The translations under genes were made by a program, and so were the position numbers. From the NCBI GenBank assembly GCA_963749605.1, contig CAVVNN010000003.1, positions 85,579 to 149,578 on the forward strand: a DNA stretch of 64,000 nt, given 5' to 3'. This DNA comes from an uncultured Solirubrobacterales bacterium. GTDB taxonomy: Bacteria > Actinomycetota > Thermoleophilia > Solirubrobacterales > 70-9. Under the pieces are notes generated by a model, which was not told where the DNA came from, made no database searches, and was given only the letters and a program-made list of their open reading frames with translations. The stretch's first letter is position 1; every line of letters begins with the position of its first letter. This document shows positions 8,392 to 34,969 of this stretch, piece by piece.

Positions 8392-9053
8392 TGCAACGGA
8401 GCCGCGCGAAAGGAGCCGCGCCCAGCTCGTCAAAGAATGCTCGGCAGATGCCGATCACCGACGACGAGATCAGGGAGAAGTACCTCGAGCGCGCGATCCG
8501 CGAGCTCAACCAGATGACACGGGAGCTGCAGGAGTGCCCCCACTGCCCGCGCGGCAACCTGATGCCGGTGCTCGGCTCCGGCCATCCGCAGGCCGACATC
8601 CTCATGCTCAAGCACGCTCCCATCAGCGCCGAGATCGAAGAGGGCGTCGCCTTCTATGGGCGGGCCGGCAACGCGCTGATGAAAAGCTTCAAGCGGCTCG
8701 GGATCGACCCGCTGGTCGTCTACGGCACGCTCTGCGTCAAGTGCCCGATCGCAGAGCCCGACCTGGCCGCCGATGAGTGTGTGCGGCGCCTGGTCGAGGA
8801 GATCGCGATCGTGCAGCCGAAGATCGTCGTGATCATGGGCGAGCCGGCGCTGCGCGTCCTCAACGGCCTCGAAGTGCCGCTGTCGCGACCGATCGAGCCC
8901 CGCGAGGGCGAGGTCCAGGCGTTCACGCCGACGATCGACGCGCTCTACACCCCCGACATCGACGACTCGCTCGACGAGGAGGGCGCCAAGCAGCGCTTCT
9001 GGCGAGCATTCCGAATGCTCGGCAAGTGGTACGAGGATCTGCCGCCCTACTAG
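8391..9053 (+). CDS. Uracil-DNA glycosylase superfamily protein (family 4/5-like, Fe-S type) with an atypical catalytic motif
   Basis: CPHCPRG ... CVKCP ... DEC cysteines and FYGRAGNAL (GrAGqLL-like). The expected GE(A/G)PG position reads LKHAP. The start ATG overlaps the preceding stop (TGATG). Confidence 0.6.
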   Translation: MQRSRAKGAAPSSSKNARQMPITDDEIREKYLERAIRELNQMTRELQECPHCPRGNLMPVLGSGHPQADILMLKHAPISAEIEEGVAFYGRAGNALMKSFKRLGIDPLVVYGTLCVKCPIAEPDLAADECVRRLVEEIAIVQPKIVVIMGEPALRVLNGLEVPLSRPIEPREGEVQAFTPTIDALYTPDIDDSLDEEGAKQRFWRAFRMLGKWYEDLPPY

Positions 9054-13467: not shown

Positions 13468-14265
13468 ATGTACCCGCACCTCCACGTCGGCCCGATCACC
13501 CTCCAGACCTTCGGCCTGATGTTCGCGCTGGCGTTCCTCGCCGCTGGGGCGCTGGTCTGGAAGCGGTTGGGGGAGATCGGCAAGCCGGTCGACTGGGCCT
13601 ATGAGATCGGGTTCTCGGCCCTGATCGGCGGCATCGTCGGCTCGCGCGTCTACTTCGTCGTCCAGAACTACAGCAGCGTCAAGCACGACCTCTTCGGCAC
13701 GCTCTTCTCCGGCTCCGGGCTGGTCTGGTACGGCGGCATCGCCGGCGGCGCCCTCGCCGTCGTGCTCTGGGCCTGGTACCGCGATTTCCTCCGCCTCACC
13801 CTGCTCGACCTGGCGGCGCCGGCGCTGGCGCTCGGCTACGCGATCGGCCGCGTCGGCTGCCAGCTCTCCGGCGACGGCGACTACGGCAAGCCGTGGAACG
13901 GGCCCTGGGCGATGTCCTACCCGCACGGCACGGTGCCCACCGACCGCACCGTCCACCCGACACCGGTCTACGAGACGCTGGCGATGGGCCTCGGCGCCTG
14001 GCTCCTCTGGCAGCTCCGCGACCGCTTCCGCGCCGGCGTCCTCTTTGCGATCTACCTGATCTATGCCGGGACCGAGCGTTTCCTGGTCGAGTTCATCCGG
14101 CGCAACAAGGAGGTCGCGCTCGGTCTCACCTCGGCGCAGCTCGAGAGCCTCGGGATGATGGTGATCGGCGCCATCTGGATCTACGCCGTGAAGCGCCGCT
14201 GCGGTAGCCTCGGGCGTCCCGATGGCAGGCTCAGAGCAGCAGACCCCGCAGGCTCCCGTGCCTGA
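13468..14265 (+). CDS. lgt: Prolipoprotein diacylglyceryl transferase
   Basis: Starts at ATG 13468. Multi-TM protein with Lgt-like YAIGRVGCQLSGDGDYG and FLVEFIR segments. Confidence 0.8.
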   Translation: MYPHLHVGPITLQTFGLMFALAFLAAGALVWKRLGEIGKPVDWAYEIGFSALIGGIVGSRVYFVVQNYSSVKHDLFGTLFSGSGLVWYGGIAGGALAVVLWAWYRDFLRLTLLDLAAPALALGYAIGRVGCQLSGDGDYGKPWNGPWAMSYPHGTVPTDRTVHPTPVYETLAMGLGAWLLWQLRDRFRAGVLFAIYLIYAGTERFLVEFIRRNKEVALGLTSAQLESLGMMVIGAIWIYAVKRRCGSLGRPDGRLRAADPAGSRA

Positions 14266-15073
14266 GACCGTCGGCGCAGCGGTCAACGCGGCGGCCGAGG
14301 CGATCGCCGCCGCGGGGTGCGAGGAGCCGCGCGCCGACGCGGAGGCGCTGGTCGCGGACGCGCTCGGCATCGGCGTCGAGGAGCTGGCCCGCGACGGCGC
14401 CGGCGAGCTGACTCCGGAGCTGGCGAGCGCGATCGAAGAGCGCGTGCGACGACGGGCGGACCACGAGCCGCTGGCCTACATCCTCGGCCGCGCCCCGTTC
14501 CGCGACCTCTCGATCGCCGTCGACTCGCGGGTGCTGTGGCCGCGCCGCGAGACCGAGCTGCTGGTCGAGGTCGGCGTCGAACTGCCCGAGGAGGCCCGCG
14601 TGCACGAGGTTGGCACCGGCTCCGGCGCGATCGCCCTGGCCCTGATCTCCGAGCGCCCCGACCTGCGGGTCACCGCCTCCGACCTCTCGCCCGAGGCTGC
14701 GGAAGCCGCCCGGGAGAACGCCGAGCGACTGGGCCTACAGCTCGAGGTGATCGTCGACGAGGGCCTGCCCGATCGGCTCGTGGACGAGGAGATCGACCTT
14801 GTCATCGCCAACCTTCCCTATGTCACCGACTCGACCATCTACGACCGTTCGCCCGAGATCCAACGTGAGCCGCGGATCGCGGTGACGGGCGATTGCGGAG
14901 AGGACGGGCTGGGAGTGATTCGTCGCCTGGTCGGCGAGGTGCGTTCCGGCCAGCGCCTGGCGCTCGAGCACGACACCCACCACGGCCCCGCGATGCGGGA
15001 GCTGCTGCGCGACGCCACCACGCTCACCGACCATGAAGGCGATGAGCGGGTGACAGTCGGCTTCGCCCCATGA
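14222..15073 (+). CDS. prmC: Release-factor glutamine N5-methyltransferase
   Basis: SAM motif VHEVGTGSGAIAL and NLPYV (an NPPY variant). N-terminal PrmC helical domain (PRADAEALVADALG). Confidence 0.85.
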   Translation: MAGSEQQTPQAPVPETVGAAVNAAAEAIAAAGCEEPRADAEALVADALGIGVEELARDGAGELTPELASAIEERVRRRADHEPLAYILGRAPFRDLSIAVDSRVLWPRRETELLVEVGVELPEEARVHEVGTGSGAIALALISERPDLRVTASDLSPEAAEAARENAERLGLQLEVIVDEGLPDRLVDEEIDLVIANLPYVTDSTIYDRSPEIQREPRIAVTGDCGEDGLGVIRRLVGEVRSGQRLALEHDTHHGPAMRELLRDATTLTDHEGDERVTVGFAP

Positions 15074-16554
15074 GCGAGGCTTCACCTGGCTCGACTGAGG
15101 CGGAGCGGCGGGCGAAGGCCGAGCGCCTGCGCGAGGAAGGGATCGACCCCTTCCCTCGCTCCTTCCCCGATCGCACCAAGATCGCCGAGATCCTCGGCGC
15201 GCACGACCCCGCCGGGCTGGGGGAGGGGGAGCACTCCGAGTTCTCCTACCGGATCGCCGGCCGGCTGACCGGGCAACGGAGCCACGGCAAGACCGCCTTC
15301 TTCGACGTTCGCGACCTCTCCGGCACGATCCAGGCGTATGCGCGCCGGGACGCGCTTGGGGAGGAGGCGTACGAGCGGATCGAGGACCTCGACATCGGCG
15401 ACGTCGTCGGCGTCGAGGGCGATCTCTACGTGACCAAGCGCGGCCAGCTCGCGCTCGAGGTCCGCGAGTGCACGCTGCTGGCGAAGGCGCTGCGCGACCC
15501 GCCCGACCTCTTCCACGGCATCTCCGACGTCGAGACTCGCTACCGGCAGCGGGAGCTGGACCTGATGGCCAACGAGCGCTCGCGCGAGGTCTTCGCGCTG
15601 CGGGCGAAGGTGCTGGCGGCGATCCGCGACCACATGAACGAGCGCGGCTACGTCGAGCTGGAAACGCCGATCCTGCAGCGGCTCACCGGCGGCGCCGCGG
15701 CGCGTCCGTTCAAAACGCACCACCACGCGCTCGACCGCCACCTCTTCCTGCGGATCGCGACCGAGCTCTACCTCAAGCGCGCCATTGTCGGCGGCTTCGA
15801 GGACGTCTACGAGCTGGGCAAGTTCTTCCGCAACGAGGGGATGTCGCCGCAGCACAACCCCGAGTTCACGATGCTCGAGTGGTTCGTCAGCGGCGTCGAC
15901 TACAACGGCGTGATGGCGTTTGCCGAGGAGCTCGTCGCCGGCGTCGTCGAGCGGGTCCTCGGCACGACGAAGGTCGAGCGCGACGGCGAGACGATCGACT
16001 TCGCGACCCCGTGGAAGCGGGTGACCGTGCGCGACGCGATCAAGGAGGAGACCGGCGTCGACGTCGTCGAGTCCAGCCGCGACGAGCTGGCCGAGCTGGT
16101 GGGGGCCGACGCCGAGCCCGGCGACGACTGGGCCGCCCTGGTCGACAGGCTGCAGGGCAAGCTGGTCGAGCCGAAGCTGACCCAGCCCACCTTCATCGTC
16201 GACCTCCCGCTCGCGCTCTGGCCGCTGGTGAAGCCGCAGCGAGAAGCGCCCGAGCTGCTCGGCGAGGCCTTCGACGGGATCGTCGCCGGGATGGAGATCG
16301 TCGGCGGCGGCACCGACGTCAACGACCCCGACGAACAGCGCCGCCACTTCGTCGAACAGCGCGAAAGGCAGGAGAAGGGCGCCGAGGAGAACCCGCACGA
16401 GCACGACGAGGAGTTCGTGCGCGCGCTCGAATACGGGATGCTGCCGGCCAGCGGCTGCGGCCTCGGCGTGGATCGCCTGATGATGATCCTGACCGGCTCG
16501 AAGACCCTCCGCGACGTGATCCTCTTCCCCTCGATGCGCGAGCAGGGGCCGTAG
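15070..16554 (+). CDS. lysS: Lysine--tRNA ligase (class II)
   Basis: OB anticodon-binding domain (KTAFFDVRDLSGTIQ) and class II motifs including GCGLGVDRLMMILTG. The ATGA overlaps prmC. Confidence 0.95.
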   Translation: MSEASPGSTEAERRAKAERLREEGIDPFPRSFPDRTKIAEILGAHDPAGLGEGEHSEFSYRIAGRLTGQRSHGKTAFFDVRDLSGTIQAYARRDALGEEAYERIEDLDIGDVVGVEGDLYVTKRGQLALEVRECTLLAKALRDPPDLFHGISDVETRYRQRELDLMANERSREVFALRAKVLAAIRDHMNERGYVELETPILQRLTGGAAARPFKTHHHALDRHLFLRIATELYLKRAIVGGFEDVYELGKFFRNEGMSPQHNPEFTMLEWFVSGVDYNGVMAFAEELVAGVVERVLGTTKVERDGETIDFATPWKRVTVRDAIKEETGVDVVESSRDELAELVGADAEPGDDWAALVDRLQGKLVEPKLTQPTFIVDLPLALWPLVKPQREAPELLGEAFDGIVAGMEIVGGGTDVNDPDEQRRHFVEQRERQEKGAEENPHEHDEEFVRALEYGMLPASGCGLGVDRLMMILTGSKTLRDVILFPSMREQGP

Positions 16555-17760: not shown

Positions 17761-17833
17761 GGGCGGTTAGCTCAGTTGGGAGAGCGCCTCCCTTACAAGG
17801 AGGAGGTCACTGGTTCGAGCCCAGTACCGCCCA
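17761..17833 (+). tRNA. tRNA-Val (anticodon TAC)
   Basis: Cloverleaf read by hand: acceptor GGGCGGT/ACCGCCC, D arm GCTC..GAGC, anticodon stem CCTCC/GGAGG with loop CTTACAA, T arm with GGTTCGAGCC. CCA is not encoded. Confidence 0.9.
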
Positions 17834-19644
17834 TTCCACTGCTTCGCTCCAGCACGAACAGTTGGAAGTAGGGGATCTGGGAGCTTTTCTGGTAGAGGAT
17901 CGGCAGCTCGTCTTTGCGGTCGGGGTCGGCCGCTGGCTCGTGCAGACCCTGGATCGTCAGACCGGCGTCGAGGAACAGTCGAGCCCAGGTCTCGGTAGTG
18001 CGATGGAAGGTCACGATGGACTCGATGACCGTGTCGCCGAGGGAATTCTCGCGCGACTTGGATACGGGCCCCTCGTCGAAATACTCCTCCAGCACGAACT
18101 CGCGATAGCGCCAGCGACCTTCGATGCGCTCCTTTCGCCAGCCCCCGCGATCCTTGATCGGGTGGGGCAGCGAGATCACCACCCGCCCCTTCGACGATGC
18201 CAGGCGAGCGATATCGGCGATCGTCGGCTGCGGATCCTCGAGATGGTCGAGGACGTTGAGGCAGAGAACGTCGTCGAACGGCCCTTCCAGCTCAATCGTC
18301 GGCACGTCCATGAGCGTGATGCGCTCGGACACGCCGGCCTCCTTTGCGCGCCGCTCCGCCAGCGCGAGCATCTTCTCTCTGGTGTCGATGGCAACCACGT
18401 CCGAGCCGGCCAGGGCGAGCCGGATGCTTTCGTGGCCGCTGCCACAGCCGATGTCGAGGACGCGGCGCCCCGGCGAGCCGGGTACGAGATGGCGCATGAG
18501 GGGATCGAGTACCAAGGCGTTCTGGGATGCTGTCTCGCGCTCCTCGGCGTAGATGTCGGCAAGAGTTGCGTCGCCGGTTGCGGCCCCGCCGCTCAACTCT
18601 CCGCAGGCTGGGCAGTCGGGCTCGCGCACGAAATCCTCGCGGTGCAGCTCGTAGGTCGTCGAATCGATGAGCAGTCGCTGGCCGATCGTCTGAACCGGCT
18701 GACCGAGTAGCCGGCGGATCACCTCGTTTGCCTGCACCGAGGCGACGAGTACGTTCAGGGGCCCCGTAGCTGGGCGCCTGATGCCGGCGGTTGAGGTTCT
18801 CCGGCGCGCTCCCCTCCCGATCCTGCAGGTCCGCCGTGGCGCGGATGCACGCGTAGCAGGCCGACTCCCCGGGAACGACCATCGGGCCGACGACGCCAAA
18901 GGCCTCGATGTAGCCGGCATTCGAGTAGGCGAAGCCGTGACGCAGTGCGGCGTCGTTCATCCAAAGGTGGACGTCGGGCGGGGAGTCGGCTGAAAGTACG
19001 ACCACGTCGCACTCGGCGAAGTGCTCGTCGAGCAGCTCGACCCCGTGGAACGCCGACCGCACTGGCTTCAGGGTGACCTCACCGTTCAGAGCTCGCAGCC
19101 GCTCGGCCGCGACCTCGACCTTCGGCCGACCGACGGCGCCCTCGTCAAACAGCGTCTGGCGGGTGAGGTTCGACAGCTCCACGTCATCGCCGTCGGAGAA
19201 GACGATTGTTCCGACACCCGCTGCGACCAGGGTCGTGGCGAGATTCGTGCCAATCCCGCCGGTGCCGACGAGGCCGACGGTGGCGCCGGCCAGCATCTCC
19301 TGGGCCTCCGAGCCGTTGGCCCCGATCAGGTCGTAGTAGAGGAGGTGGCGGGCGTAGCGACTGGTCGAATCCAGGTCGTCAGTGGCCAGCACGCCCGCCT
19401 CGAGCAGCTCGCCGAGCAGTTGCCTTGCCTGATCCTTGTCGAGGTTTGCCAAGCGCACGGCGTGCGCGATCGCCTCGTCTCGGGTGCGGGGTACCGAGAG
19501 GTAGGCGAGAAGCTCTGGCAGGCCGGGCGGAGCGTCCTCTATTTTGACCGCGCGAGGGGGAAGGGCTCCGACGAGGACGTCGCCGTCTAGCTGGAGAACC
19601 GAGAGGTACTGCGGGACGACCAGCGTGTCACGGGAGGCGTTCAC
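17793..19644 (-). pseudogene. MccB-like ThiF/E1 adenylyltransferase fused to a class I SAM methyltransferase, interrupted by a 1-nt frameshift
   Basis: The 18292-19644 frame holds an about 90-aa N-terminal domain, then E1 motifs GLVGTGGIG, DGDDVELSNLTRQ and a first CxxC (CYAC). The 17793-18920 frame continues the E1 fold (PLNVLVASVQANEVIRRLLG, second CxxC CPAC), then VLDIGCGSG and the rest of a methyltransferase. The frames switch in the GGGGCCCC run at 18758-18765. Confidence 0.8.
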
Positions 19645-19666
19645 GTTCGAGCGCTGGACGCCTCGC

Positions 19667-21496
19667 CTAATCCTCGGGTGCGCTGGAGGGTTCGCCGTCT
19701 TCGGCGGATTTAGGCGGCCGGATGAGCTTGAGGTTCAGCTCTCGCAGCCGCTCCGGGGGGATCGGCGCCGGCGCGGCCATCATCACGTCCTGGGCGCGCT
19801 GGTTCATCGGGAAGGCGATCACCTCGCGGATGTTGGGCTCGTCGGCGAGCAGCATCACGATCCGGTCGATGCCGGGGGCGACGCCGCCGTGCGGTGGCGC
19901 CCCGACGCGAAAGGCACGCCCGAGGGCGCCGAAGCGCTCGTCGACCTCCTGCTTGGAGTAGCCGGCGATTTCGAAGGCGCGGTAGAGGACGTCGGGGCGG
20001 TGGTTCCGGATCGCGCCGGAGGAGAGCTCGTAGCCGTTGCAGACGATGTCGTACTGGAAGGCCCTGACCTCGAGCGGGTCCGTCGTTTCGAGCGTGTCGA
20101 GGCCGCCCTGCGGCATCGAGAACGGGTTGTGGCTGAACCCGACCTCCCCGGTCTCCTCGTCCAGCTCATACATCGGGAAGTCGACGACCCAGCAGAACCG
20201 GTAGGCGCCCTGCTCGACCAAGCCGAGCGCCTGGCCGACGTGGTCGCGCATCGCGCCGAGCAGGCTGCGCGCCTTCTGCAGGCGGGCGTCGGAGATCATC
20301 AGCAGGGCGTCGCCCTCCTCGGCGCCGAGCGCGGCGATCGCCGCCTGCTGGACCTCGGGCGCCAGGTGGCGAGCCAGCGGCCCGCGGAGGGAGTTGCCGG
20401 GCTCGACGAAGAACCAGGCCAGGCCACCGGCGCCCAGCTCGCGCGCGAACTCGTCGAAGCGGTCCATGTCGGCCCGGGAGAGCTCGGGTTTGGGTATGCG
20501 CATGCCGGAGACGTGGCCGGCGCTGAGCGCGCGCACCCCCGAGTCGGCGAAGACGTCGGCGAGGTCGCGCATCTCGATCGGGATGCGCAGGTCCGGCTTG
20601 TCGGACCCGTAGCGCTCCATCGCCTCCTCGTAGGGGATGCGCGGAAAGGGCAGCGGCGTCGTCTCCCACTCCGGCCTCAGATCGGCGAACAGCCCGTGCA
20701 GCACGTCCTCGACCACCTCGAACACGTCCTCCTGCTCGACGAAGCTCATCTCGATATCGAGTTGGTAGAACTCGCCCGGAGAGCGGTCCGCGCGGGCGTC
20801 CTCGTCGCGGTAGCAGGGGGCGATCTGGAAGTAGCGGTCGAAGCCGGCGACCATCAGCAGCTGCTTGTACTGCTGCGGCGCCTGCGGCAGCGCGTAGAAC
20901 TTGCCCGGATGCACCCGGGAGGGAACGAGGTAGTCGCGAGCTCCCTCCGGGCTCGATGCGGTCAGCGTCGGGGTCTGCAGCTCGAGGAAGCCGTGGCGCT
21001 GCATCCGCTCGCGCAGGCTGGCGACGATCTTCGACCGCAGGACGACGTTCTCGTGCATGCGCGAGCGGCGCAGGTCCAGAAAGCGATATTGGAGGCGGCT
21101 TTCCTCCGGCGCGTCCTCCTCGGGGAAGACCGTGAACGGCAGCGGCTCCGCCGCGCCGAGCACCTCGGCCTGCCGGGCCTCGACCTCGACCTCTCCGGTG
21201 TCGATCGCGGGGTTGACCGTCTCGGGCGAGCGCGCGAGGACCGAGCCCTCGATTCGCAGCACGGTCTCCTTGGGAACGTGGGCGAGGTCGAGGTCGAGCT
21301 CGGAGCGGACCAGGATCTGCGTGATGCCGTAGTGATCGCGGAGGTCGAGGAACAGCACGCCGCCCAGGTCGCGGCGATTGTGGATCCAGCCGGTGAGGGC
21401 GACGTCCTCGCCGACGCGATCGGCGTTCAGCTCCCCGCACGTATGCGTGCGCATGCTCGTGGAAAGTTGCGCTTGGGGGCGGGGCTGCGGTGTCAT
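19667..21496 (-). CDS. aspS: Aspartate--tRNA ligase (bacterial type)
   Basis: FLDLRDHYGITQ (OB), QAPQQYKQLLM, GAD insertion domain and GGVAPGIDRIVMLL (motif 3). ATG 21454 (MRTHTCGEL) is an alternative start. The gene is intact. Confidence 0.95.
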   Translation of the reverse strand: MTPQPRPQAQLSTSMRTHTCGELNADRVGEDVALTGWIHNRRDLGGVLFLDLRDHYGITQILVRSELDLDLAHVPKETVLRIEGSVLARSPETVNPAIDTGEVEVEARQAEVLGAAEPLPFTVFPEEDAPEESRLQYRFLDLRRSRMHENVVLRSKIVASLRERMQRHGFLELQTPTLTASSPEGARDYLVPSRVHPGKFYALPQAPQQYKQLLMVAGFDRYFQIAPCYRDEDARADRSPGEFYQLDIEMSFVEQEDVFEVVEDVLHGLFADLRPEWETTPLPFPRIPYEEAMERYGSDKPDLRIPIEMRDLADVFADSGVRALSAGHVSGMRIPKPELSRADMDRFDEFARELGAGGLAWFFVEPGNSLRGPLARHLAPEVQQAAIAALGAEEGDALLMISDARLQKARSLLGAMRDHVGQALGLVEQGAYRFCWVVDFPMYELDEETGEVGFSHNPFSMPQGGLDTLETTDPLEVRAFQYDIVCNGYELSSGAIRNHRPDVLYRAFEIAGYSKQEVDERFGALGRAFRVGAPPHGGVAPGIDRIVMLLADEPNIREVIAFPMNQRAQDVMMAAPAPIPPERLRELNLKLIRPPKSAEDGEPSSAPED

Positions 21497-21649
21497 GTGA
21501 TTAGTGGCGCTGCGATCTGTGCGAGGCCGAGGGGCTTTGCAACGTACCTCAAAGATGCGGGTACGCGGCAGGCGCGCGGCGATGCTCGACTTGGGCTCGA
21601 CCCCGCTGTTACAGTCGCGTTGCAGTTAGTCAACCAATCGAGGTAGAAA

Positions 21650-21709
21650 GTGCTAAAAGTCACGAAGGTTCGCGGAATCCGCGGCGTTTCCAGCCTGGTT
21701 CGCAACTGA
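21650..21709 (+). CDS. Unannotated 19-codon ORF ending in Asn, candidate MccA-type precursor peptide
   Basis: In-frame TAG at 21644-21646, GAGG at 21640-21643, GTG at 21650. Peptide M(V)LKVTKVRGIRGVSSLVRN, TGA at 21707-21709. It ends 17 nt before the CmoA-like start. It is too short for the 60-aa ORF track. Confidence 0.5.
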   Translation: MLKVTKVRGIRGVSSLVRN

Positions 21710-21726
21710 GCAATCCCCTCGACCGC

Positions 21727-22422
21727 GTGCTGGCCGGCGATCGCTGGGAGTTCGACGATTCCGTCACTGCGGTATTCGAGAATATGTTGGAACGGTCGAT
21801 TCCCCAGTACGGGGAGATGCGTTCGGCGGTCGGCAGCCTCGCTGCTCACTTTGCAGCCGGCCGGCCGGCCGGCTGCGTAGTCGACCTCGGCTGCTCGCGC
21901 GGTGAGGCGATTGCAACGCTCGTGGACAGATTCGATGAAGACGCGACTTTCACCGGTGTGGAGGCCAGCCCATCCATGCTCGAGGCTGCCCGGAAGCGTT
22001 TCGCTCCCCACGACAACGTCGAGATCCTGGATCTCGACCTGCGATCCGAATATCCGACTGGGACCGCAAACGTGACGCTCGCCGTTCTGACCGTGCAGTT
22101 CATCCCAATCGAGTACCGACAGCAGCTCATCCAGCAGGTCTACGATCACACCGCGCGTGGCGGGGCGTTCATTCTGGTCGAGAAGGTCCTCGGCTCCACC
22201 GCGGAGCTCGACCGCATGATGGTGGCCTTCCACCTCGAGATGAAGCGTCGCAAGGGCTACTCGCAGGAGGAGATCGACCGCAAGCGTCTCTCCCTGGAGG
22301 GCGTTTTGGTACCAGTCACCGCGAAGTGGAACGTCGAAATGCTCGAAGCAGCGGGATTTCAGGAAATCGACTGCTTCTGGCGTTGGATGAACTTCGCGGG
22401 CTGGGTCGCAGTCCGCCATTGA
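21727..22422 (+). CDS. cmoA: Carboxy-S-adenosyl-L-methionine synthase (CmoA/MccS family)
   Basis: 231 aa, colinear with my recollection of E. coli CmoA: WEFDDSVTAVFENMLERSIPQY (cf. [22 protein letters not shown]), DLGCS, LTVQF, KRRKGYSQEEIDRKRLSLEGV, CFWRWMNFAGWVAV. Confidence 0.8.
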   Translation: MLAGDRWEFDDSVTAVFENMLERSIPQYGEMRSAVGSLAAHFAAGRPAGCVVDLGCSRGEAIATLVDRFDEDATFTGVEASPSMLEAARKRFAPHDNVEILDLDLRSEYPTGTANVTLAVLTVQFIPIEYRQQLIQQVYDHTARGGAFILVEKVLGSTAELDRMMVAFHLEMKRRKGYSQEEIDRKRLSLEGVLVPVTAKWNVEMLEAAGFQEIDCFWRWMNFAGWVAVRH

Positions 22423-22438
22423 GGTCGCCGCTCGGGGC

Positions 22439-23285
22439 TCAGGGGGCGCTGGGGCGCAGCTCGGGGGTCCTGGTGCCGCCGCGGCGGCGCTCGGCCTCGG
22501 TTACCACGTCGAAGAAGACGTCGTTGCGGCCGCGCCGCAGCGGACGGGGGAAAAGGCGGCGCGCACGGCGGTGCGAGGCGGCGAGCGGCGCGGAAGCTCG
22601 CCTCGTGCGCGCCGCTCCAGCGGATGCCGAAGATCTCGCGCACCCGCGGCGGCAGCGTTCCCTTGATGATGTGGTTCTGGACCGCGATGTTGCCCCGGGC
22701 GGCGGCCGGCACCGGCTGGCGGAAGGCGACCAGCGGCGCCATCTCCAGCGCGTGCTCGGTCGCCTGCAGGTCGGGTGAGGCGAGCTTCCCGTCCCACCAG
22801 CCGCTGGAACTCGAGGTGGCTGGCCGGCACCTCGCTGCGCGGCAGCCCGAACAGCTCGCCGAAGCGCACGTAGTCCTGCCAGAGGTCCTCGCGCTCGCCC
22901 TCGCTCAGCGGCCGCACCATCGTCTCGTACATCGCCCGCCCGGAGTCGGCGATCACCGCCAGCGTCCACAGCATCAGCTCCGGGTCGAAGGCCGAGTAGG
23001 CGGCGCCGGCGGGGTGGGCGCCGGCCGCCTCGGGCAGCGTCCCCTCGACCGTCTCGTGCAGGCGGTGGACCTTGGCCAGCGCCTCGTCGGCCTCCTCGCG
23101 GCGTGCCGAGGAAGATCGTCTCCTGGATCTTCGCCGTGCGGGCGAGCCGCTCGAAGGGCCGGTCGCCGGAGCGGGTGCGAGAGCATCGTGCCGGTGTAGG
23201 TGAGCGGTTCCAGCGCCCCGATCAGCAGCGCCCGCTGGCCGTAGAGCAGGCCGACCGAGCGCTCGCCGTGGACGCGGCGCGCCAT
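22439..23285 (-). pseudogene. DUF2236 / MpaB-type oxygenase family gene broken by about 4 frameshifts
   Basis: A coherent protein can be followed only by switching frames at about 23168, 23097, 22803 and 22590: ...GQRALLIGALEPLTYTGTMLSHP / SGDRPFERLARTAKIQETIFLGT / EEADEALAKVHRLHETVEG...HLEFQRL / WDGKLASPDLQATEHALEMAPLVAF...FGIRW / LAASHRRARRLFPRPLRRGRNDVFFDVV. Confidence 0.75.
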
Positions 23286-24912
23286 CGAGCGCCCCGGGGG
23301 GAAGTAGTGGTCTTCGCTCTCCGAGGTCGGTCACGCCAGCCGCGGATGCTACTCCGCGTAGGTGGCGCTGACCGCCATCTGCCAGAGCCGGTACGGGCGC
23401 GCGGCGCTTCCTGCAGCTCGTGAGCGGCGAAGATCTCGTCGAGGTCCTCGCGGGTGAGCGTCTCGCGCTCGAGCGCGTTCGCGGCGAGGTCGTCGAGGCA
23501 CTCGCGGTTCCCGCCCAGCAGCGCGCGGGCGCGGCGGTAGGCCTCGCGCGCCAGCGTCATCGCCGCCACGTCGACGTCGCGCCGGGTGCGGTCGGAGAGC
23601 GCGTAGTCGCCGGTCGGCAGCGCGATCGGCGGCGGGCCGTCGGCGTCGAGCGCGACGCCCATCCCGAACTCGCCGACCATCTGCTTGCAGACCGAGTGCA
23701 CCCGGGCCAGGTCGTCGACCGCGCCCGGAGTAGGACTCGCCGAACACCTCCTCCTCGGCGGCGCGCCCGCCCAGCAGGGTGACGATCTCGTCGAGCAGCT
23801 CGTCGCGCGACTTCAGGTAGGTGTCCTCCTGCGGCGAGTGGCCGACGAAGCCGAGCGCCGGCCCGCGCGGGACGATGCTGAGGATCTCCGGCGGGTCGAG
23901 GCCGAGCAGCCGCCGGCAGAGGGCGTGCCCCGCCTCGTGGTAGGCGACGATCCGCCGCTCCTTCGAGCTCAGTCGCCGCGCCTGCTGGGAGCCGACCGAC
24001 TGGCGCAGCAGCGCCTCGTCGAGGTCCTCGCGGGCGATCGCGTCGCGCTCCGCCCGCCCGGCGATGATCGCCGCCTCGTTGAGCGCGTTGGCGAGCTGGG
24101 CGCCGGTCATCCCGGTCGTCTTGCGGGCGACGTCGGTGAGGTCGAGGTCGGGGCCGAGCGGCTTGCCCTTGGCGTGCGCGCGCAGGATCGCCTCGCGGCC
24201 GTCGCGGTCCGGCGGCGCGACCAGCACCTGGCGGTCGAAGCGCCCGGGTCGCAACAGCGCGCTGGTCGAGCTTGTCGACGTAGTTGGAGGCGGCGATCAC
24301 GATCACCGTCCCCGGGTCGCGCTCGAAGCCGTCGAGCTCGACCAGCAGCTGGTTCAGCGCCTGCTCGCGCTCGCTGGTGCCACCGTCGCCGCTGCCGCCG
24401 CTGCGCGCTCCCCCGACCGCGTCGAGCTCGTCGATGAAGATCACCGCGCGCCCGGACTTGCGCGCCTCCTTGAACAGCCGCCTGATCCGGGCGGCGCCCC
24501 TGCCCACGAACATCTCGACGAAGCTCGAGCCGGAGGCCGAGAAGAAGTCGACGCCGGCCTGCGCGGCGACGGCTCGCGCCAGCATCGTCTTGCCCGTCCC
24601 CGGGGGGCCGTAGAGAAGCACGCCGCGCGGCGGCTGCGCCCCGAGCGCCGCGAAGCGGTCGGGGTCGCGCAGCCACTCGGCCACGTCCATCAGCTCGTCC
24701 TTGGCTGCGTCGACCCCCTGCACCTCCTCCCACAGCACCGGCTTGGTCTGGCTCGCCTTCACCGTCTCCGGCTTGGTCGTGCCCATCGTCCCCCGCAGCA
24801 GTTTGAGGAAGACGAGCAGCAGCCCGCACATGAAGAAGACCCCGAAAACGGGGTACCAGTCGAAGAAGAAGCTCTGGATTTCGCTTGCCGCGAGTGCCTG
24901 CGTCAGGTGCAT
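23222..24912 (-). pseudogene. FtsH-like AAA+ zinc metalloprotease paralogue (single N-terminal TM) broken by 2 frameshifts; 3' boundary uncertain
   Basis: Frame 1: TM helix, Walker A GPPGTGKT, Walker B IFIDELD. Frame 2, from about 24260: [18 protein letters not shown] zinc motif. Frame 3, from about 23722: [21 protein letters not shown]. Each junction looks like one extra C before GCG. Confidence 0.8.
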
Positions 24913-27875: not shown

Positions 27876-27949
<74 letters not shown>

Positions 27950-28184
27950 CTCCACGCAAAGCCATTTCCAAAGCGGAGTTCAGACTTTCTTTCGCTTCCA
28001 GAGGTTCTCTCCAAATTCTCATGGGTACCACATTTGGGTACCAACCTGAGGCGAAATTGCACGCACCCTCGCTTGGTTCTAGCCATGAGCTGCGCGTCCA
28101 GCCCCGGCCGGTTTCCCAAGGGCTGCGGGATAGGGCGTCGGGATTGCAAAGCCCAGACAAACAGCGCTTGACCTTGGTTCGGCT

Positions 28185-28202
28185 TCAATTGTTTGGACCG
28201 AT
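28185..28202 (+). repeat. Direct repeat copy 1 (TCAATTGTTTGGACCGAT)
   Basis: 17/18 identical to 32829-32846. Weaker similarity extends about 40 nt upstream of both copies. Confidence 0.7.
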
Positions 28203-28324
28203 CTATCTCTAGACACCGCTTCATCAAGCCAAAAATAAGGCGGGTCAGAGTTGGGTCCACCTCGAGCCGCGCCGAGGCCTTATTGCCGCTGGCATCGGAC
28301 TGACGCACCGCCCCTCAGCGCCCG

Positions 28325-31099
28325 CTAGGTCTTCACTTCGAATCCGTACATCTCTCCGCGGTTCCGGTAAGCCGCCTCGCCCCCCTCGAGGATCTCGCAT
28401 GCCCGCGCCCGTGTTTGCACCGCGTCGACTGAACCGACCTCGCGGATCAGCCCTTTTCCTTCCCAGCCCTGCATCGGCACGATCAGCTCCGCATCGCCGA
28501 GCACGGTGATGTTGGCGTTGTGGGTGGCCATGATCACCTGCCGGCTCTCCTTCACCTGTCGAAGCACCGCAACGACCGTGCGCGCGATGAACTGGCTGTC
28601 GAGGTGATCCTCGGGCTGGTCGATGATTAGTGGCGTCTGCTCGGCCGAGAACAGCAGCGCGCCCAGGAGGATCGAGGCTTTCTGCCCGAAGGAGAGGCTC
28701 TCGAACTTCACCGTGCGGATCTCCTCCCCAAACGTCGTCAGTGTTATCTCAGGAGCGTCCTCGCGCGCCACCGCCTCAAGCCCCCCGAGCTTCTCGCCAC
28801 CCAGCGCCGCAATGAACTCCGCCACCGTTCCCTCGTCGACGAAGAAGGGAGTTCCCTCGCTGTCCTTGATCGCCAGCAGCTCCGCGTTGTCACCCTTCCT
28901 CACGGCGGCCGCCAGTTCGATCGGGCTTATCGCCGCGCAGAAGTGGTGCAGGCGGATGTTTTGGAAGAACTGGTTGCTGATCTGCTCGCGCACCCATTCG
29001 GCGTACTTCTCAACCAGAGCTCCCTGGCGGAAAGCCAGCTTCACCTGAAAGTCCTCGAAGGCGTTGTTCAGCTTTGCGGTCAGCGACACCATCGCCGCGG
29101 CCCGCAGCTGCCCACGCTTTACCTGCGCCGCCTCGAAATCCTTCAGCAGCTCCCTTCTCTCCTCGAGCTTCTTCCCCAGTTCCTCACTCTGCACCTTTGC
29201 CTCGTCGATCGCTTTCAGCTGCGCTGTCTCGGCGCTGGTCAGGCGATTCATTTCGCCCAGTTTCGGGTCGATCCCCTTTTCCCGCAGCATCTCCATCACC
29301 GCCTGCACCTTTGCCTCGATCGCCTGCTCGCGCGTCTTCCAATCGGCCAACCGCTCGTCCAGCCCGCTCTTCGCCTGCGATAGGGCCCTCTGCATTTCTG
29401 TTCGGGCCGAGCTCAGCTCACTCGCGAGCGCCGCCATTGCCCCGACCAACCCCTCGTCCTCGCTCTCACGGTTCAGCAACTCTGCGCTCGGCGTCTTATC
29501 CAGGTCCACCTCAGCGCTCGCTGCCATCTCGGTGACGTCCAGCGAGAGGTCGAGATCGTCGATCGCGGTGGCGATCTCTCCCAGTCGCCGCTCCAACTCC
29601 GCCCGCAAGCGTCGCTCGCCCTGAAGTTTGCGCCGCCACTCGAGCGCCTCCTTCAGGTTCGACTCTTCCAGTGCCTTCAGCTTCAGGCGTGTCTTGCCCA
29701 GCTCCCTTTCGGCATCCGCCTTCCGTTTCGGCGCCCCAGCGAGCGGTTTGGTAGCGGCCGCGTTCGCCCCCAACTTGTCGGCCAACTCGCCTAGCTCTGC
29801 CTCTATCTCCGCGAGATCGGCGAACTGGTCGAGGAAGGCGAGCAGCGGCTGCGGCTTCTCCGGGTAGCCACGAATGATCGAGGCGACACGATCCTGTCCG
29901 TAGCCCTCGATCTCGACGCTCGTTTCCGTCGCGCCCTCTTCGGTCAGCTCGTAGGTCATCTTGCCGCTGTCCCGCTTCAAGTGGTGCAGCGCTCCTAACT
30001 CGTCCTTGTAGATCAGTTGGACGGTGTCGGGCGAGTTATCTCCGTCGTCGAACCTGCCGCTCTCCGAGCGGCAGGCGGCATCGACACTCTCCAGCGCCGT
30101 CGACTTGCCCGCCCCCCGGCCCCCGATCAGGCAGTTCAGGTTCGGGCTGAAGGCGATTTCCTGGCCGTCGAGAAAACCGCCCTTAAAGCGGGCGCCGACG
30201 ATTCTCGGATAGTCCGACGGCACCCTCGCCTCCAGCTTGATTCGCGCCTCCGGGTCGGCCAGCGCCGTCCGGAAGGCGGCGAAGGATGGCTCGCTCATCT
30301 TCACCCGGGTGACCCGGTCCCGACCCTCCCGGTCGCGCCCGATTCTCTCCACGGAATGAGCGTCGGAAAACAGCAGCTTCGCCAGGCGGCCGCCGCCAGC
30401 CCCCAGCTCCGCTTCGCGCTTTTTCAGCAGCTCCAGGCGGGGCTCCGCCTCGACGCCGCTCTCCCGCGGCGTGTACCACTCGGCCTCTGCGGCGTCGTCC
30501 ACCTCCACTGCCACCAGCGCCGGGCTACAGATGACCGCCTCTTTGACCTGTGGCGAGACCCGTGCTTCAAAGCCGGTCCCGTCGCGGCCTATGTGGGCTG
30601 GAATAGCGATCCCGCCGGCCTCCCTCACTTCGTCCATAAGCTCGTGGATCTGCTTCAGCACATATCGGTCGCCGCTCTGCGCGCCCTCCTTGAACTCCAG
30701 CCTCCCGAACCATTGCTTGAAGGCCGCATATTCTTCGCGCGCGAAGTAGACCAGCACGTGCCCCTGGCCGGTCGTGATCTCGACCCCGGCAAAGGCGACC
30801 AGACCTTCCGCCGCCGCTGACCCCAGCAGCGCCTCGACCGAGTCGATCGCGTTGTGGTCGGTGATCGCGATCAGATCAAGGTCACGCTCCTTAGCCGCCG
30901 CCACGATCCCCTCCACGGTCATCTCCGGCTCGCTTACGTCTGAGGAGACCCCGTAGCTATGGATGTGCAGGTCGGCCCGTAGGAAGGCGGCGCCGGAGGA
31001 GAGCTGATCGAAGCCCTCAAATGGATCGCCGCCGCCCTCGATTTGATCTCCGTTGGTCACCGGCGCCTGTGTGTAGCAGGTGTTGAAAACAGATCGCAA
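28325..31099 (-). CDS. PHP phosphoesterase fused to an SMC/RecF-like ABC ATPase with a long coiled coil (Ppl-like architecture)
   Basis: 924 aa, TTG start. N-terminal PHP (DLHIHSYGVS, AITDHN), Walker A GGRGAGKST, an about 200-aa coiled coil, signature-like LSFGQKAS, Walker B LIIDQPEDHLD, then VIMATHNANI. Confidence 0.75.
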   Translation of the reverse strand: MRSVFNTCYTQAPVTNGDQIEGGGDPFEGFDQLSSGAAFLRADLHIHSYGVSSDVSEPEMTVEGIVAAAKERDLDLIAITDHNAIDSVEALLGSAAAEGLVAFAGVEITTGQGHVLVYFAREEYAAFKQWFGRLEFKEGAQSGDRYVLKQIHELMDEVREAGGIAIPAHIGRDGTGFEARVSPQVKEAVICSPALVAVEVDDAAEAEWYTPRESGVEAEPRLELLKKREAELGAGGGRLAKLLFSDAHSVERIGRDREGRDRVTRVKMSEPSFAAFRTALADPEARIKLEARVPSDYPRIVGARFKGGFLDGQEIAFSPNLNCLIGGRGAGKSTALESVDAACRSESGRFDDGDNSPDTVQLIYKDELGALHHLKRDSGKMTYELTEEGATETSVEIEGYGQDRVASIIRGYPEKPQPLLAFLDQFADLAEIEAELGELADKLGANAAATKPLAGAPKRKADAERELGKTRLKLKALEESNLKEALEWRRKLQGERRLRAELERRLGEIATAIDDLDLSLDVTEMAASAEVDLDKTPSAELLNRESEDEGLVGAMAALASELSSARTEMQRALSQAKSGLDERLADWKTREQAIEAKVQAVMEMLREKGIDPKLGEMNRLTSAETAQLKAIDEAKVQSEELGKKLEERRELLKDFEAAQVKRGQLRAAAMVSLTAKLNNAFEDFQVKLAFRQGALVEKYAEWVREQISNQFFQNIRLHHFCAAISPIELAAAVRKGDNAELLAIKDSEGTPFFVDEGTVAEFIAALGGEKLGGLEAVAREDAPEITLTTFGEEIRTVKFESLSFGQKASILLGALLFSAEQTPLIIDQPEDHLDSQFIARTVVAVLRQVKESRQVIMATHNANITVLGDAELIVPMQGWEGKGLIREVGSVDAVQTRARACEILEGGEAAYRNRGEMYGFEVKT

Positions 31100-31250
31100 G
31101 GGTCACAAGTTTGGGCCTGCAGATTTGGCTTTCTAGAGCCGCAAGCGGTTGCGCCCTGAACAGGACTCGAACGGTGCGACCTACTCCTTTTAGGAGGGAG
31201 TCGGTCATCCTCGTGCCTTGGGATGCCTTGCAGGCGAGTGCAACAATTCT

Positions 31251-32501
31251 TCAAGGTCCGAGCGCTCCGATCGGGACAACTTGGACCCCATCTTCGCGCC
31301 TGTAGCCGTAGCCGCCAGCGGTCAGCACAGCCAATACTGCCGGCTCGCCTGAGCGGCTGGTGTCGACCTGCCCCGCGAACTTTTGGAGGGCAGTGGCCGC
31401 TTCCTCGATGGCGGTCTCCCCACCCAGCTTGACCTCAAAGGCCCCCCACCTCCCGTCTTGGCAGTTAATGATCGCGTCGACCTCGAGATCGTTTGAGTCG
31501 CGGTAGTGCTCGACTTTGGCTTCCAGCGGCTGGGCATAGATCCGTAGGTCACGGACGACCATCGACTCGAAGAAGAGTCCAAAGGTGTTGAGGTCGTCCA
31601 TTAGCGCCTGCGGATTTCCTCGCAGCGCCGCCACTGCCAAGGAGGGATCGACGAAGTGGCGCTTTGGCGCTTTACGAAGCGAGTAGCGTGAGCGCAGGTG
31701 TGGGCGCCAGGAAGGCTGGTCCTCGATGATGAATAGTCGGCTGAGGGCTTCCAGGTACTCACTTACCGTCGCCGAAGTGACCGGGTCGCCGGACTCACTC
31801 GCGTCGCTGGCCAGCGTAGTTGCTGCAACGTTGGTCGCGAGGTTTCGAGCAAGGCTCTGCAGCAGGCGCATCACCTTCTCCGGCCGATGTCTCGGCCCGA
31901 TGCTTTTGAGATCGGCGCGGACCACCTCGTCTAGGTAATCCCGAACGCCGCGAAGCGCCGGATCCATCTCGAGATGGCGGAAACCAGGCCAGCCACCGCG
32001 ACATAGCGCCTCGGCGACCTGTTGCAGCTCAAGCCTCGGATCGGCTGCCTCAGCCTTCTCGCCGCCGAGCAGCTCGGCGAGGGAGACCTCGCCGTTGCTG
32101 GTGCCGAGCTCATAGAGCGACATCGGCCGCATCCGCAGTCGGCTAATTCGCCCTGCTCCGGTGTGACGGGTCTCGTCATCGGTGGGCTGGGCGGAGCCGG
32201 CGAGGATGAACTGACCGGGGTCGTTGCGGTTATCGACCTCCCGGCGAACATGGTTCCAGATGCTCGGCGCTACCTGCCACTCATCGATCAACCTCGGTGT
32301 TTTGCCCTCAAGGATCAGACCGGGATTGATCTCGGCGGCTTTCCTAGCCTCCTCATTCACATCGAGCAGTACCTCGCTCTTAGCCAGCTGCCTCGCAGTC
32401 TCCGTCTTGCCGCAAGCTTTAGGGCCCTCAACCAAGACCGCTCCAGTCGACTCAAGTCGTTCCTGTAGCTCGATATCTGCAGTTCTAGGCAAGTAAGGCA
32501 T
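31251..32501 (-). CDS. AAA ATPase with a DUF4143-type C-terminal domain
   Basis: 416 aa. Walker A GPKACGKT, Walker B LIDEWQ, C-terminal restriction-endonuclease-like region (DLEVDAIINCQDGRWGAFEVKLG). Confidence 0.75.
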   Translation of the reverse strand: MPYLPRTADIELQERLESTGAVLVEGPKACGKTETARQLAKSEVLLDVNEEARKAAEINPGLILEGKTPRLIDEWQVAPSIWNHVRREVDNRNDPGQFILAGSAQPTDDETRHTGAGRISRLRMRPMSLYELGTSNGEVSLAELLGGEKAEAADPRLELQQVAEALCRGGWPGFRHLEMDPALRGVRDYLDEVVRADLKSIGPRHRPEKVMRLLQSLARNLATNVAATTLASDASESGDPVTSATVSEYLEALSRLFIIEDQPSWRPHLRSRYSLRKAPKRHFVDPSLAVAALRGNPQALMDDLNTFGLFFESMVVRDLRIYAQPLEAKVEHYRDSNDLEVDAIINCQDGRWGAFEVKLGGETAIEEAATALQKFAGQVDTSRSGEPAVLAVLTAGGYGYRREDGVQVVPIGALGP

Positions 32502-32520
32502 TTTGGCTCTAAAAAAGGAC

Positions 32521-32618
32521 TTCTACAAGTTATCCCATGAATTGTAGAATAAATGGACGAAAGATTGTGGATCTTTTAGGGCAATGATTATAGGGCTTTT
32601 TGCCGAAAGATTGTAGAA
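32521..32618. promoter_or_regulatory. AT-rich repeat cluster upstream of the DUF4143 ATPase gene
   Basis: TTCTACAA (32521-32528) is the inverse of TTGTAGAA (32542-32549), and TTGTAGAA recurs at 32611-32618. CGAAAGATTGT(G/A)GA occurs at 32558-32571 and 32604-32617. Confidence 0.4.
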
Positions 32619-32828
32619 AGATCTTCCGGGGCCTTGATCCGGGTTGCGGCGCGGGCGAGCGCACGGCGCCGCCCTCGGGTCTTCTTGCCGATCACATCGC
32701 CGTGGGGCCTCGCATCGGGCTGAGCCGAAGACCACGGTCGACCCCTAGGTTCGGTAAGTGGCCTCGCTTCCGTGGCTCGCTGTCTCAGGCGACCGTCGAT
32801 CGCAACAAGAACCAACCCTTGTCTGGCG

Positions 32829-32846
32829 TCAATTGTTTGGGCCGAT
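32829..32846 (+). repeat. Direct repeat copy 2 (TCAATTGTTTGGGCCGAT)
   Basis: Partner of 28185-28202, in the same orientation. Confidence 0.7.
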
Positions 32847-33054
32847 TCCCGTGGGGCGCCGATGGCTAGCGCCCTTACGCCCCAGTGCGCGTCAGGCCGG
32901 GTCGCAGTTACCGCCAGGACATGGCCCTGGCCGCGAGGCCGCAGGGCCTGACGGCAAGCACCGACCTGGCCGCTGTTCACCGCGAGGCAAGGAACGTCCG
33001 ACCGGCTGTCGAACATTCGTTCGTTCGTGGTCGGACAAACTAAGGTGGAGAGCG

Positions 33055-33783
33055 ATGGCTGACCGAAGCGCGATCGAGTGGACGGAGGCGACCTGGAACC
33101 CGGTCACCGGGTGCTCGAAGGTCTCTCCCGGCTGCGCGCACTGCTACGCGGAGACCTTCGCCGAGCGCTGGCGCGGCGTGCCGGGACACCCCTACGAGCA
33201 GGGCTTCGACCTGAAGCTCTGGCCCGAGCGCCTCGACCAGCCGCTGCGCTGGCGCCGGCCGCGGACGATCTTCGTCAACTCGATGAGCGACCTCTTCCAC
33301 GAGCAGATCCCCGACGCGTTCGTCCACGACGTCTTCCGCGTCATGGGCGAAGCCGACTGGCACGTCTTCCAGGTCCTCACCAAGCGCCATGAGCGGCTCG
33401 TCGACCTTGGGCGAACCCTCGACTGGCCGCCCAACGTCTGGATGGGGGTCTCGATCGAGAACCGCCGCTTCGTCCACCGCGCCGACTTCCTGCGCCAGGT
33501 ACCGGCCGCCGTCCGCTTCATTTCGGCCGAGCCGCTGCTCGGGCCGCTCGACGGCCTCGACCTGAGCGGGATCGACTGGCTGATCGCCGGCGGGGAGTCC
33601 GGGCCCGGCCACCGCCCGGTGCGACATGAGTGGGTGCGCGAACTCCGCGACCACTGTCTCGCCGATGACGTCGCCTTCTTCTTCAAGCAGTGGGGCGGTC
33701 GCACCCCGAAGGCTGGCGGTCGCCTTCTCGACGGTTCCCACCACGATGCGATGCCATCTTCTCGAGCCCTCACGCCGGCTTAG
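33055..33783 (+). CDS. DUF5131 (phage Gp37/Gp68-like) three-Cys-motif protein
   Basis: 242 aa from ATG 33055 (AAGGTGGAG upstream). IEWTEATWNPVTGCSKVSPGCAHCYAE (C-x6-C-x2-C), VFQVLTKR, ISAEPLLGPL, WLIAGGESGP. Confidence 0.8.
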   Translation: MADRSAIEWTEATWNPVTGCSKVSPGCAHCYAETFAERWRGVPGHPYEQGFDLKLWPERLDQPLRWRRPRTIFVNSMSDLFHEQIPDAFVHDVFRVMGEADWHVFQVLTKRHERLVDLGRTLDWPPNVWMGVSIENRRFVHRADFLRQVPAAVRFISAEPLLGPLDGLDLSGIDWLIAGGESGPGHRPVRHEWVRELRDHCLADDVAFFFKQWGGRTPKAGGRLLDGSHHDAMPSSRALTPA

Positions 33784-34904: not shown

Positions 34905-34969
34905 AGCGGTAGCAGGCTAATGCTCTAGCGGTCGAACTTCTCGGCGACTGTGATCGTTGGTGTCGTCTT

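Follow-up and report, generated by a model that had tools for sequence, protein, structure and literature searches.

A short open reading frame beside aspS in a probable Solirubrobacterales genome as a likely precursor gene of a microcin C-like peptidyl-nucleotide

The Bacillus amyloliquefaciens DSM7 cluster mccA-mccB-mccS-mccC specifies a peptide-carboxymethyl-cytidine antibiotic (Serebryakova et al. 2016, as summarised in PMC12250964 and PMC8323819), the precursor of which, MccA, is a peptide of 19 amino acids (aa; PMC12250964). Peptidyl-carboxymethyl-cytidylates are likewise made by the clusters of Nocardia vaccinii and Yersinia pseudotuberculosis, and the 21-aa MccA of N. vaccinii is cytidylated and carboxymethylated in vitro by its own MccB (PMC9239234). 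MccB enzymes with a C-terminal methyltransferase domain cytidylate in vivo (PMC8323819, PMC9239234, PMC12250964); all known enzymes of this architecture cytidylate, and MccS is restricted to clusters that encode them (PMC8323819). An exporter belongs to the minimal mcc gene set (PMC9239234). Furthermore, actinobacterial mcc-like biosynthetic gene clusters with an aspartyl-tRNA synthetase (AspRS) gene, aspS, have been catalogued as type 19 in Fig. 6 of the review by Travin et al. 2021, in which an immunity role of the AspRS was proposed (PMC8323819). Here, we describe a locus in a 64-kb stretch of DNA (contig CAVVNN010000003.1; hereafter the window), where an open reading frame (ORF) of 19 codons at 21650..21709 on the plus strand lies next to genes of this kind. 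With a probability of about 0.9, judged from sequence comparison, we consider it to be mccA, a gene for a ribosomal peptide of 19 residues from which a microcin C-like peptidyl-nucleotide would be formed, of the subclass known from B. amyloliquefaciens, Y. pseudotuberculosis and N. vaccinii.

The frame starts with GTG at 21650, contains 19 sense codons and stops with TGA at 21707-21709 (GTG CTA AAA GTC ACG AAG GTT CGC GGA ATC CGC GGC GTT TCC AGC CTG GTT CGC AAC TGA). Its product reads (f)MLKVTKVRGIRGVSSLVRN and ends in Asn, the predicted residue of nucleotidylation. The Shine-Dalgarno (SD)-like sequence GAGG (21640..21643, plus strand) is situated 6 nt 5' of the GTG, and in relatives GGGGAGG, GGGAGGG or GGAAGGG are found 6-9 nt ahead of the starts. 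An in-frame TAG (21644-21646), two codons upstream of the GTG, also closes a long spurious ORF that runs antisense to aspS. From the mccA stop to the start of mccS (GTG 21727) the gap is 17 nt. Short open frames are abundant in this DNA, since the window has about 68% GC: we counted 1606 small ORFs from start to stop with lengths of 7-45 aa. Thirteen of these terminate in Asn, as do five of the 497 that are 15-25 aa long. The short Asn-ending ORF is real and uncommon, but without comparative data it would be unconvincing.

For the comparison, one genome per species was scanned with an MccB alignment, which resulted in 64 loci. In approximately 35 of the 64, ORFs of the form MLK[ILV]x[KR]...N, all of them 19 aa in length, were found close to the MccB gene; their hosts were Pseudonocardiaceae metagenome-assembled genomes (MAGs), Paenibacillus, Lysinibacillus, Streptomyces, Streptacidiphilus, a Clostridia MAG, Arthrobacter/Paenarthrobacter and Nostocoides. 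A second form, the 21-aa MRRIxLxRxxxxK[GA]SxxVx[AS]N, was present in 15 further loci (Nocardiopsis, Mycobacterium, Dactylosporangium and Pseudonocardiaceae MAGs), immediately 5' of aspS in operons with the order mccA-aspS-mccB-mccS. The N. vaccinii locus (L015) encodes the 21-aa peptide MKIVLKLKRIVRGAGPIIVSN, with a different N-terminus, and the B. amyloliquefaciens locus, as read from the genome, encodes the 19-aa MLKIRKVKIVRAQNGHYTN after mccB and mccS and ahead of a major facilitator superfamily (MFS) gene. In the four loci nearest to the window (L001-L004) the peptide is also of 19 aa and follows MLKITKV[YRE]KV[RH]G[AV]SS[LI]VRN. The nearest of them, L001, has the genes of AspRS and then of a ThiF-methyltransferase protein on one strand, and on the other strand a 19-codon ORF, MLKITKVYKVRGASSLVRN, behind GGGGAGG. 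No MccA-type ORF was found in L068-L070, which have a related aspS and no mccB.

A profile hidden Markov model (HMM), built from 19 peptides of other loci with the B. amyloliquefaciens peptide included and that of the window excluded, was run against the 1606 small ORFs of the window and returned mccA with E=2e-8, the runner-up having an E-value of 0.53. A separate search guarded against circularity: across 1.18 Mb of related loci, ORFs were selected by the N-terminal motif alone, with their length (5-60 aa) and last residue left free. This search recovered 62 ORFs; 51 were 19 or 21 aa long and every one of these 51 ended in Asn. The remaining 11 had scattered lengths, ten of them with a last residue other than Asn and one (22 aa) with Asn, and are taken as background. 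The window ORF is a member of a conserved family of 19-/21-aa peptides, always Asn-ended and always beside MccB homologues.

The nucleotide differences between mccA of the window and those of L001-L004 are of the coding type. Third codon positions account for 8-12 of the differences and the first two positions for 1-5; 6-8 of the codon changes are silent, whereas 3-6 replace the amino acid, mostly conservatively. Across the same five loci both ATG and GTG serve as start codons, and the flanks of mccA are unalignable except for the SD sequence, with an ungapped identity of about 20-40%. Because the ORF is conserved, differs from its homologues as a coding sequence does and is recovered by the profile HMM, we regard it as a real gene of the B. 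amyloliquefaciens-type MccA family. Two other readings, in which the ORF encodes no substrate peptide, seem extremely improbable: an open frame that arose by chance, or an upstream ORF with a regulatory role within the 5' leader of mccS, the CmoA-like gene. It is true that short frames are frequent at 68% GC, with 1606 of them in the window, and that translational coupling would be plausible 17 nt ahead of a gene devoid of an SD sequence. Yet members from different phyla agree in amino acid sequence, in exact length and in the terminal Asn, and the position of the ORF with respect to mccS varies: it follows mccB in L002 and L072, follows mccS in Bacillus and precedes aspS in the MRRI clade. 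The third-position bias of the differences, the homology of the peptide to characterised MccA peptides (PMC9239234, PMC12250964) and the lack of any Rfam element in the region also speak against it.

The original prediction, derived from the DNA letters, had proposed a microcin C-type precursor here and looked for a short Asn-ended ORF to be retained in syntenic loci. The proposal is supported by the homologous 19-/21-aa ORFs beside MccB genes and by the HMM result, and all 51 length-matched ORFs carry the terminal Asn; its account of the ORF itself (the GAGG, the TAG, the GTG start, the TGA stop and the 17-nt gap) was confirmed in every detail by sequence reading.

Signals around the gene are faint. 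In the divergent intergenic region (21497-21649), a weak putative promoter may be composed of TCGACT, an 18-nt spacer and TACAGT (21586..21615, plus strand), and TGGACG, 17-18 nt and TAC(G/C)GT occur at equal distance upstream of mccA in L001, L003 and L004. A generic sigma-70 promoter scan returned nothing at 21586..21615 and found no promoter. The terminator scan gave a single terminator-like match, inside mccS, which did not exceed the expectation from shuffled sequences. Rfam searches, over the whole window at gathering threshold and permissively over 21300-21900, detected no riboswitch, leader or small RNA, the intergenic region giving sub-threshold noise only. Folding of mccA with the region downstream of it was unremarkable (z-score +0.27), and with this value a terminator like that of E. 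coli mccA is not claimed for the window. Strong GC-rich stem-loops with perfect stems of 9-10 bp were observed about 30 nt after the mccA stop in L003 (~1869-1948), L004 (~5835-5914) and L002 (~8930-9010); they resemble the terminator that follows E. coli mccA, and only in L002 does the folding differ from that of shuffled sequences (z=-2.4). A post-mccA stem-loop of this sort is absent from the window because mccS begins 17 nt later.

The predicted modifying enzyme is encoded by mccB (17793..19644, minus strand), which comprises a peptide-clamp region, a ThiF-like nucleotidyltransferase and a C-terminal carboxymethyltransferase-type domain. Its reading frame is broken once, into two overlapping ORFs, with a ThiF Pfam match of E=3e-39 and the methyltransferase Pfam domains on the second ORF. 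The site is a +1 frameshift at GGGG (18762..18765, minus strand), where GGG restores ...QAPSYGPLNVLVASVQANEVIRRLLG... and regains the invariant columns Q286, A287, S289, G291, L293 and N294 of alignment A1. Thus repaired, the protein shares 69-72% of its residues with P0001-P0004, four proteins of 600 aa from metagenomes or MAGs, and aligns end to end with the ThiF-methyltransferase of B. amyloliquefaciens (P0019; 45% identity over 95% of its length) and with the N. vaccinii protein (P0036; 44% over at least 95%). Its best match in PDB is E. coli MccB 3H5A (E=2e-42), with ThiF at 2e-24 and ThiF/MoeB at about 1e-24. The motifs CYAC and CPAC, two CxxC pairs, align with the invariant or near-invariant columns C260, C263, C341 and C344 of A1, and the N-terminal 90 residues, predicted to bind the peptide, align across the family. 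By analogy with the characterised enzymes, the C-terminal domain is inferred to transfer carboxymethyl rather than methyl groups. It should be added that mccB extends about 14 codons beyond the conserved C-terminus of the homologues (...IPYFQLFVLE), and that its stop falls within the antisense strand of tRNA-Val, so that gene and tRNA overlap by 41 nt (17793-17833).

Downstream of mccA, mccS (21727..22422, plus strand) encodes a CmoA-like carboxy-SAM synthase homologue of 231 aa (SAM, S-adenosylmethionine). Its best NCBIfam model is TIGR00740 CmoA (E=8e-46, model positions 14-238 of 239), with 157 bits and hence below the equivalog cut-off of 193; the best PDB match is E. coli CmoA 4GEK (E=7e-31), and identity to the homologues in L001-L004 amounts to 66-71%. 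As to the layout of the module, mccA-mccS on the plus strand diverge from aspS-mccB on the minus strand, and aspS separates mccA from mccB. The original prediction had held that both enzyme types flank the ORF. This stands for the CmoA homologue, which comes next on the plus strand; 2 kb separate the ORF from the ThiF-methyltransferase gene, located beyond aspS on the minus strand. The description given there of a B. amyloliquefaciens variant, with an MccB that carries a C-terminal methyltransferase domain and works with the CmoA homologue MccS, was correct (PMC8323819, PMC12250964), while the aspS between mccA and mccB, the catalogued cluster type and the strain-specificity of the mcc genes had been overlooked.

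The steps proposed for the window are drawn from characterised homologues (PMC8323819, PMC9239234, PMC12250964). The N-terminal clamp of MccB would bind the precursor peptide, and the ThiF domain would consume two nucleoside triphosphates, which in this subclass are CTP in vivo; the C-terminal Asn would pass through a succinimide and end up as isoAsn with cytidine monophosphate attached by an N-P bond. MccS would form carboxy-SAM from SAM and prephenate, and MccB would add the carboxymethyl group from it. Sensitive cells would then import the compound and degrade its peptide part, releasing a non-hydrolysable aspartyl-nucleotide mimic that blocks AspRS. The peptide could be the substrate of the ThiF-like enzyme and still be subject to another chemistry, be it another nucleotide, no carboxymethyl group, extra tailoring or a target other than AspRS; we rate this as improbable. 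The choice of nucleotide is unreadable from sequence and MccB enzymes are promiscuous in vitro (PMC8323819), that of the window is only 44-45% identical to characterised ones, and related modules contain extra methyltransferase, carbamoyltransferase and YqcI-like genes. Against this, cytidylation is common to all known methyltransferase-domain MccB proteins and MccS is confined to their clusters (PMC8323819), and the invariant C-terminal Asn together with the embedded aspS points to AspRS as the target.

Related aspS-type modules, L002 (9036-15038), L072 (5793-7901) and L071 (4375-5773), were seen to be richer in tailoring genes, which encode one or two more SAM methyltransferases, a protein of the GDSL family, a carbamoyltransferase of the type called MccY in the literature and a YqcI/YcgG-family protein. 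The L072 module is flanked by IS110 and DDE transposases, and none of the three has an adjacent exporter.

Several observations weigh against a functional module in the window. With the 1-nt insertion in mccB, no full-length MccB is encoded as assembled. The mccS gene has no SD sequence, and the N-terminus of its product is about nine residues shorter than in the nearest homologues. A YqcI/YcgG-family gene, which may be the mccX of the literature, sits between mccA and mccS in the nearest relatives and is missing from the window; no remnants of it were found between the two genes, and a tblastn alignment that seemed to run on into the YqcI gene of L001, at its 3' end, was rejected as over-extended, for it crosses a stop codon. 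Neither an MFS nor an ATP-binding cassette (ABC) exporter was found in the module or within about 8 kb of it, as judged by mapping the window genes from 10-28 kb onto the annotated L068; an exporter may be encoded elsewhere in the genome. Finally, the relatives L068, L073 and L074 share the order FtsH-like, MpaB-like, aspS, tRNA-Val, ..., lysS, prmC and lack mccA, mccS and mccB, that is, this species group readily exists without the mcc genes.

Taken together, these points allow for a genuine mccA homologue in a module that is a decaying, non-producing remnant, in which the mccB frameshift is real, mccX and the exporter have been lost and aspS has been kept. The genes adjacent to mccS fit such decay as well: comparison of 22586-24262 with L068 showed 11 single-nt insertions, mostly outside homopolymers, by which the FtsH-like (23349-24912, minus strand) and MpaB-like (22501-23334, minus strand) genes, intact with 518 and 298 aa in relatives, are split into several frames; the coding sequence of the neighbouring aspS has none of these insertions. 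On the other side, the roughly 600 codons of mccB contain a single lesion and the residues invariant in its family are retained, and the reading frames of mccA, mccS and aspS are intact. The insertions in the FtsH-like and MpaB-like genes may be either assembly errors or real decay; the assemblies of close relatives, apparently of the same kind, show split genes too, and because of both these observations the mccB frameshift may be an assembly artefact. Moreover, the B. amyloliquefaciens cluster functions without mccX (PMC12250964), and other aspS-type actinobacterial modules are likewise without an adjacent exporter. We hold a decaying remnant to be possible but doubtful; the assignment of 21650-21709 as mccA is shared by both views.

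The genes mccB, aspS, mccA and mccS are the sole part of the window common with L001-L004, and the flanks differ. Compared with the mcc-less relatives, of which L068 has about 96% nucleotide identity to the window, L073 has 98-99% in the flanks and L074 shares the gene order, the window has two additional segments. The first, of 936 nt (21511..22446), contains the divergent promoter region, mccA and mccS, is missing in L068, L073 and L074, and has the 7-nt direct repeat CAGCGCC at both junctions. The second (17834-19645), equally missing in the three, carries mccB and is bounded on the outside by the 3' end of tRNA-Val(TAC) (17761..17833, plus strand), and homology with the mcc-less relatives restarts exactly at 17833/17834. 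At the mccB position, L073 has an empty site with about 30 nt between the aspS stop and the 3' end of tRNA-Val, and L068 has a different 2.1-kb element containing HTH_17 and a partial tRNA repeat. Between the window and L073, the synonymous divergence (dS) of aspS (19667-21496) is about 0.09, with the differences concentrated in the 3' half, vs 0.004 for prmC (14222-15073), located 5 kb away. These contrasting values identify the aspS/mcc region as a recombination mosaic in a near-identical background. In this organism, probably a member of the Solirubrobacterales, the mcc genes on either side of aspS form an accessory set specific to the strain.

The synthetase gene itself (19667..21496, minus strand) is complete and starts the aspS-mccB pair, 22 nt upstream of mccB. 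It encodes a bacterial-type AspRS of 609 aa, which matches the NF001750 model (aspartate--tRNA ligase) with 774 bits vs a cut-off of 443, and is a candidate self-immunity copy of the target. Among the loci fetched, aspS adjoins mccB in 20. In all 20 mcc-linked AspRS (the window, L001-L004, L010-L014, L017-L019, L027, L034, L035, L054, L056, L057 and L063) the motif FSHNPFSMPQGG is invariant, at a position where the PDB AspRS of E. coli, Thermus and Mycobacterium have MHH(P/A)FT(S/A)P, the active-site histidine loop. We considered FSHNPFSMPQGG as a resistance signature and rejected it: AspRS of the same lineage, 76-80% identical to that of the window, occur in mcc-free contexts, and the motif is thus probably a lineage marker and not evidence of resistance. 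The linked AspRS of a Mycobacterium MAG scores 506 bits vs M. smegmatis AspRS and 499 bits vs Thermus AspRS and, with values so close, is not of the ordinary housekeeping type; like the linkage of aspS to mccB in 20 loci, this speaks for a second, insensitive copy of the target.

For the window, the dN/dS of aspS (0.18-0.22) is that of lysS and prmC, i.e. no difference from the neighbouring housekeeping genes was seen by this measure. Since aspS is present at the same chromosomal site in the three mcc-less relatives (L068, L073, L074) and homologues occur in mcc-free contexts, the gene may be the ordinary AspRS of the lineage and not an extra copy. Hypothetically, the aspS placed between mccA and mccB could shield the producer by supplying an insensitive or an additional target. 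A further scenario, which we find unlikely, is that the mcc genes were wrapped around a core aspS as a strain-variable recombining block, and that AspRS with FSHNPFSMPQGG in place of the MHHPFT loop would be naturally insensitive and a source of mobile aspS immunity genes in other Actinomycetota. If true, the target gene itself would have been the nucleus of antibiotic cluster assembly. Nearly isogenic genomes that either have or lack the mcc genes at one and the same aspS form a natural set bearing on the idea of self-immunity through a cluster-borne AspRS.

Outside the mcc module, a complete class II lysyl-tRNA synthetase gene, lysS (15070-16554), lies 3 kb from aspS and forms part of the conserved core surroundings, which L068, L073 and L074 have as well; the best named relatives of its product are from Solirubrobacterales MAGs, with 85-87% identity, and from these the probable taxon of the window is taken. 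At tRNA-Asp (27876-27950), where the homology with L068 and L073 stops, an island of lower GC content (58-63%) begins and spans ~28000-46000. It comprises genes for a PHP + AAA_21/AAA_15 ATPase (28325-31099), an AAA_14/DUF4143 protein, a DUF5131 protein, a DprA-like protein and a Type ISP/MmeI-like restriction-modification enzyme (39670-43233), and looks like a defence island.

If 21650-21709 is mccA, a gene of 60 nt that is invisible to ordinary gene callers would be the key substrate gene of an antibiotic cluster, and with mccA unrecognised the adjoining ThiF-methyltransferase, CmoA-like and AspRS genes would read as primary metabolism. The comparison has also yielded about 50 further precursor sequences, all of them 19 or 21 aa long and with Asn as the unvarying last residue.

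Comparison with characterised systems places the locus as follows. With the B. amyloliquefaciens cluster it shares a 19-aa precursor with an MLK[IV]xKV start, [IV]R at positions 10-11 and an Asn end, the ThiF plus methyltransferase architecture of MccB and a CmoA-like MccS. It differs from it in gene order (mccB-mccS-mccA-MFS in B. amyloliquefaciens, mccA-mccS divergent from aspS-mccB in the window), in the presence of aspS and absence of an exporter, where B. amyloliquefaciens has an MFS exporter and no aspS, and in the host, a high-GC actinobacterium, probably of the Solirubrobacterales. With N. vaccinii and Y. pseudotuberculosis the bifunctional MccB, MccS and a short basic Asn-ended precursor (L015) are in common; their clusters additionally have mccC, mccD/E1 (aminopropylation), mccX and mccG or mccE2 (immunity), none of which is found in the window, where the candidate immunity determinant is aspS. 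Microcin C7 of E. coli (mccABCDEF) has a ThiF-like MccB, a precursor with C-terminal Asn and AspRS as target; its MccA is a heptapeptide that is adenylated and not cytidylated, and its cluster is plasmid-borne and without the methyltransferase domain, MccS and aspS. A targeted synthetase gene inside the biosynthetic cluster is also known from other Trojan-horse inhibitors of aminoacyl-tRNA synthetases, albomycin (abmK, SerRS) and agrocin 84 (agnB2, LeuRS), where target duplicates confer self-resistance (PMC8323819); the putative resistance gene of the window, aspS, differs in being present at the same site in mcc-less relatives as well.

A further counterpart is type 19, which the window resembles, going by the description in the review, in the MccB with a carboxymethyltransferase-type domain, MccS and the in-cluster AspRS gene (PMC8323819). 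Within the aspS-type loci, the window forms a sub-clade with L001, L003 and L004, having mccA-(mccX)-mccS divergent from aspS-mccB and the 19-aa MLK peptide in place of the 21-aa MRRI form. The features by which the window differs from described systems, namely the divergent arrangement, the lack of exporter and mccX, the probable host order and the presence or absence at strain level, do not amount to a new principle, and the cluster type is already known from the 2021 review, so that no new kind of system is revealed. What the locus adds is that the B. amyloliquefaciens-type peptidyl-cytidylate family probably extends to the Solirubrobacterales.

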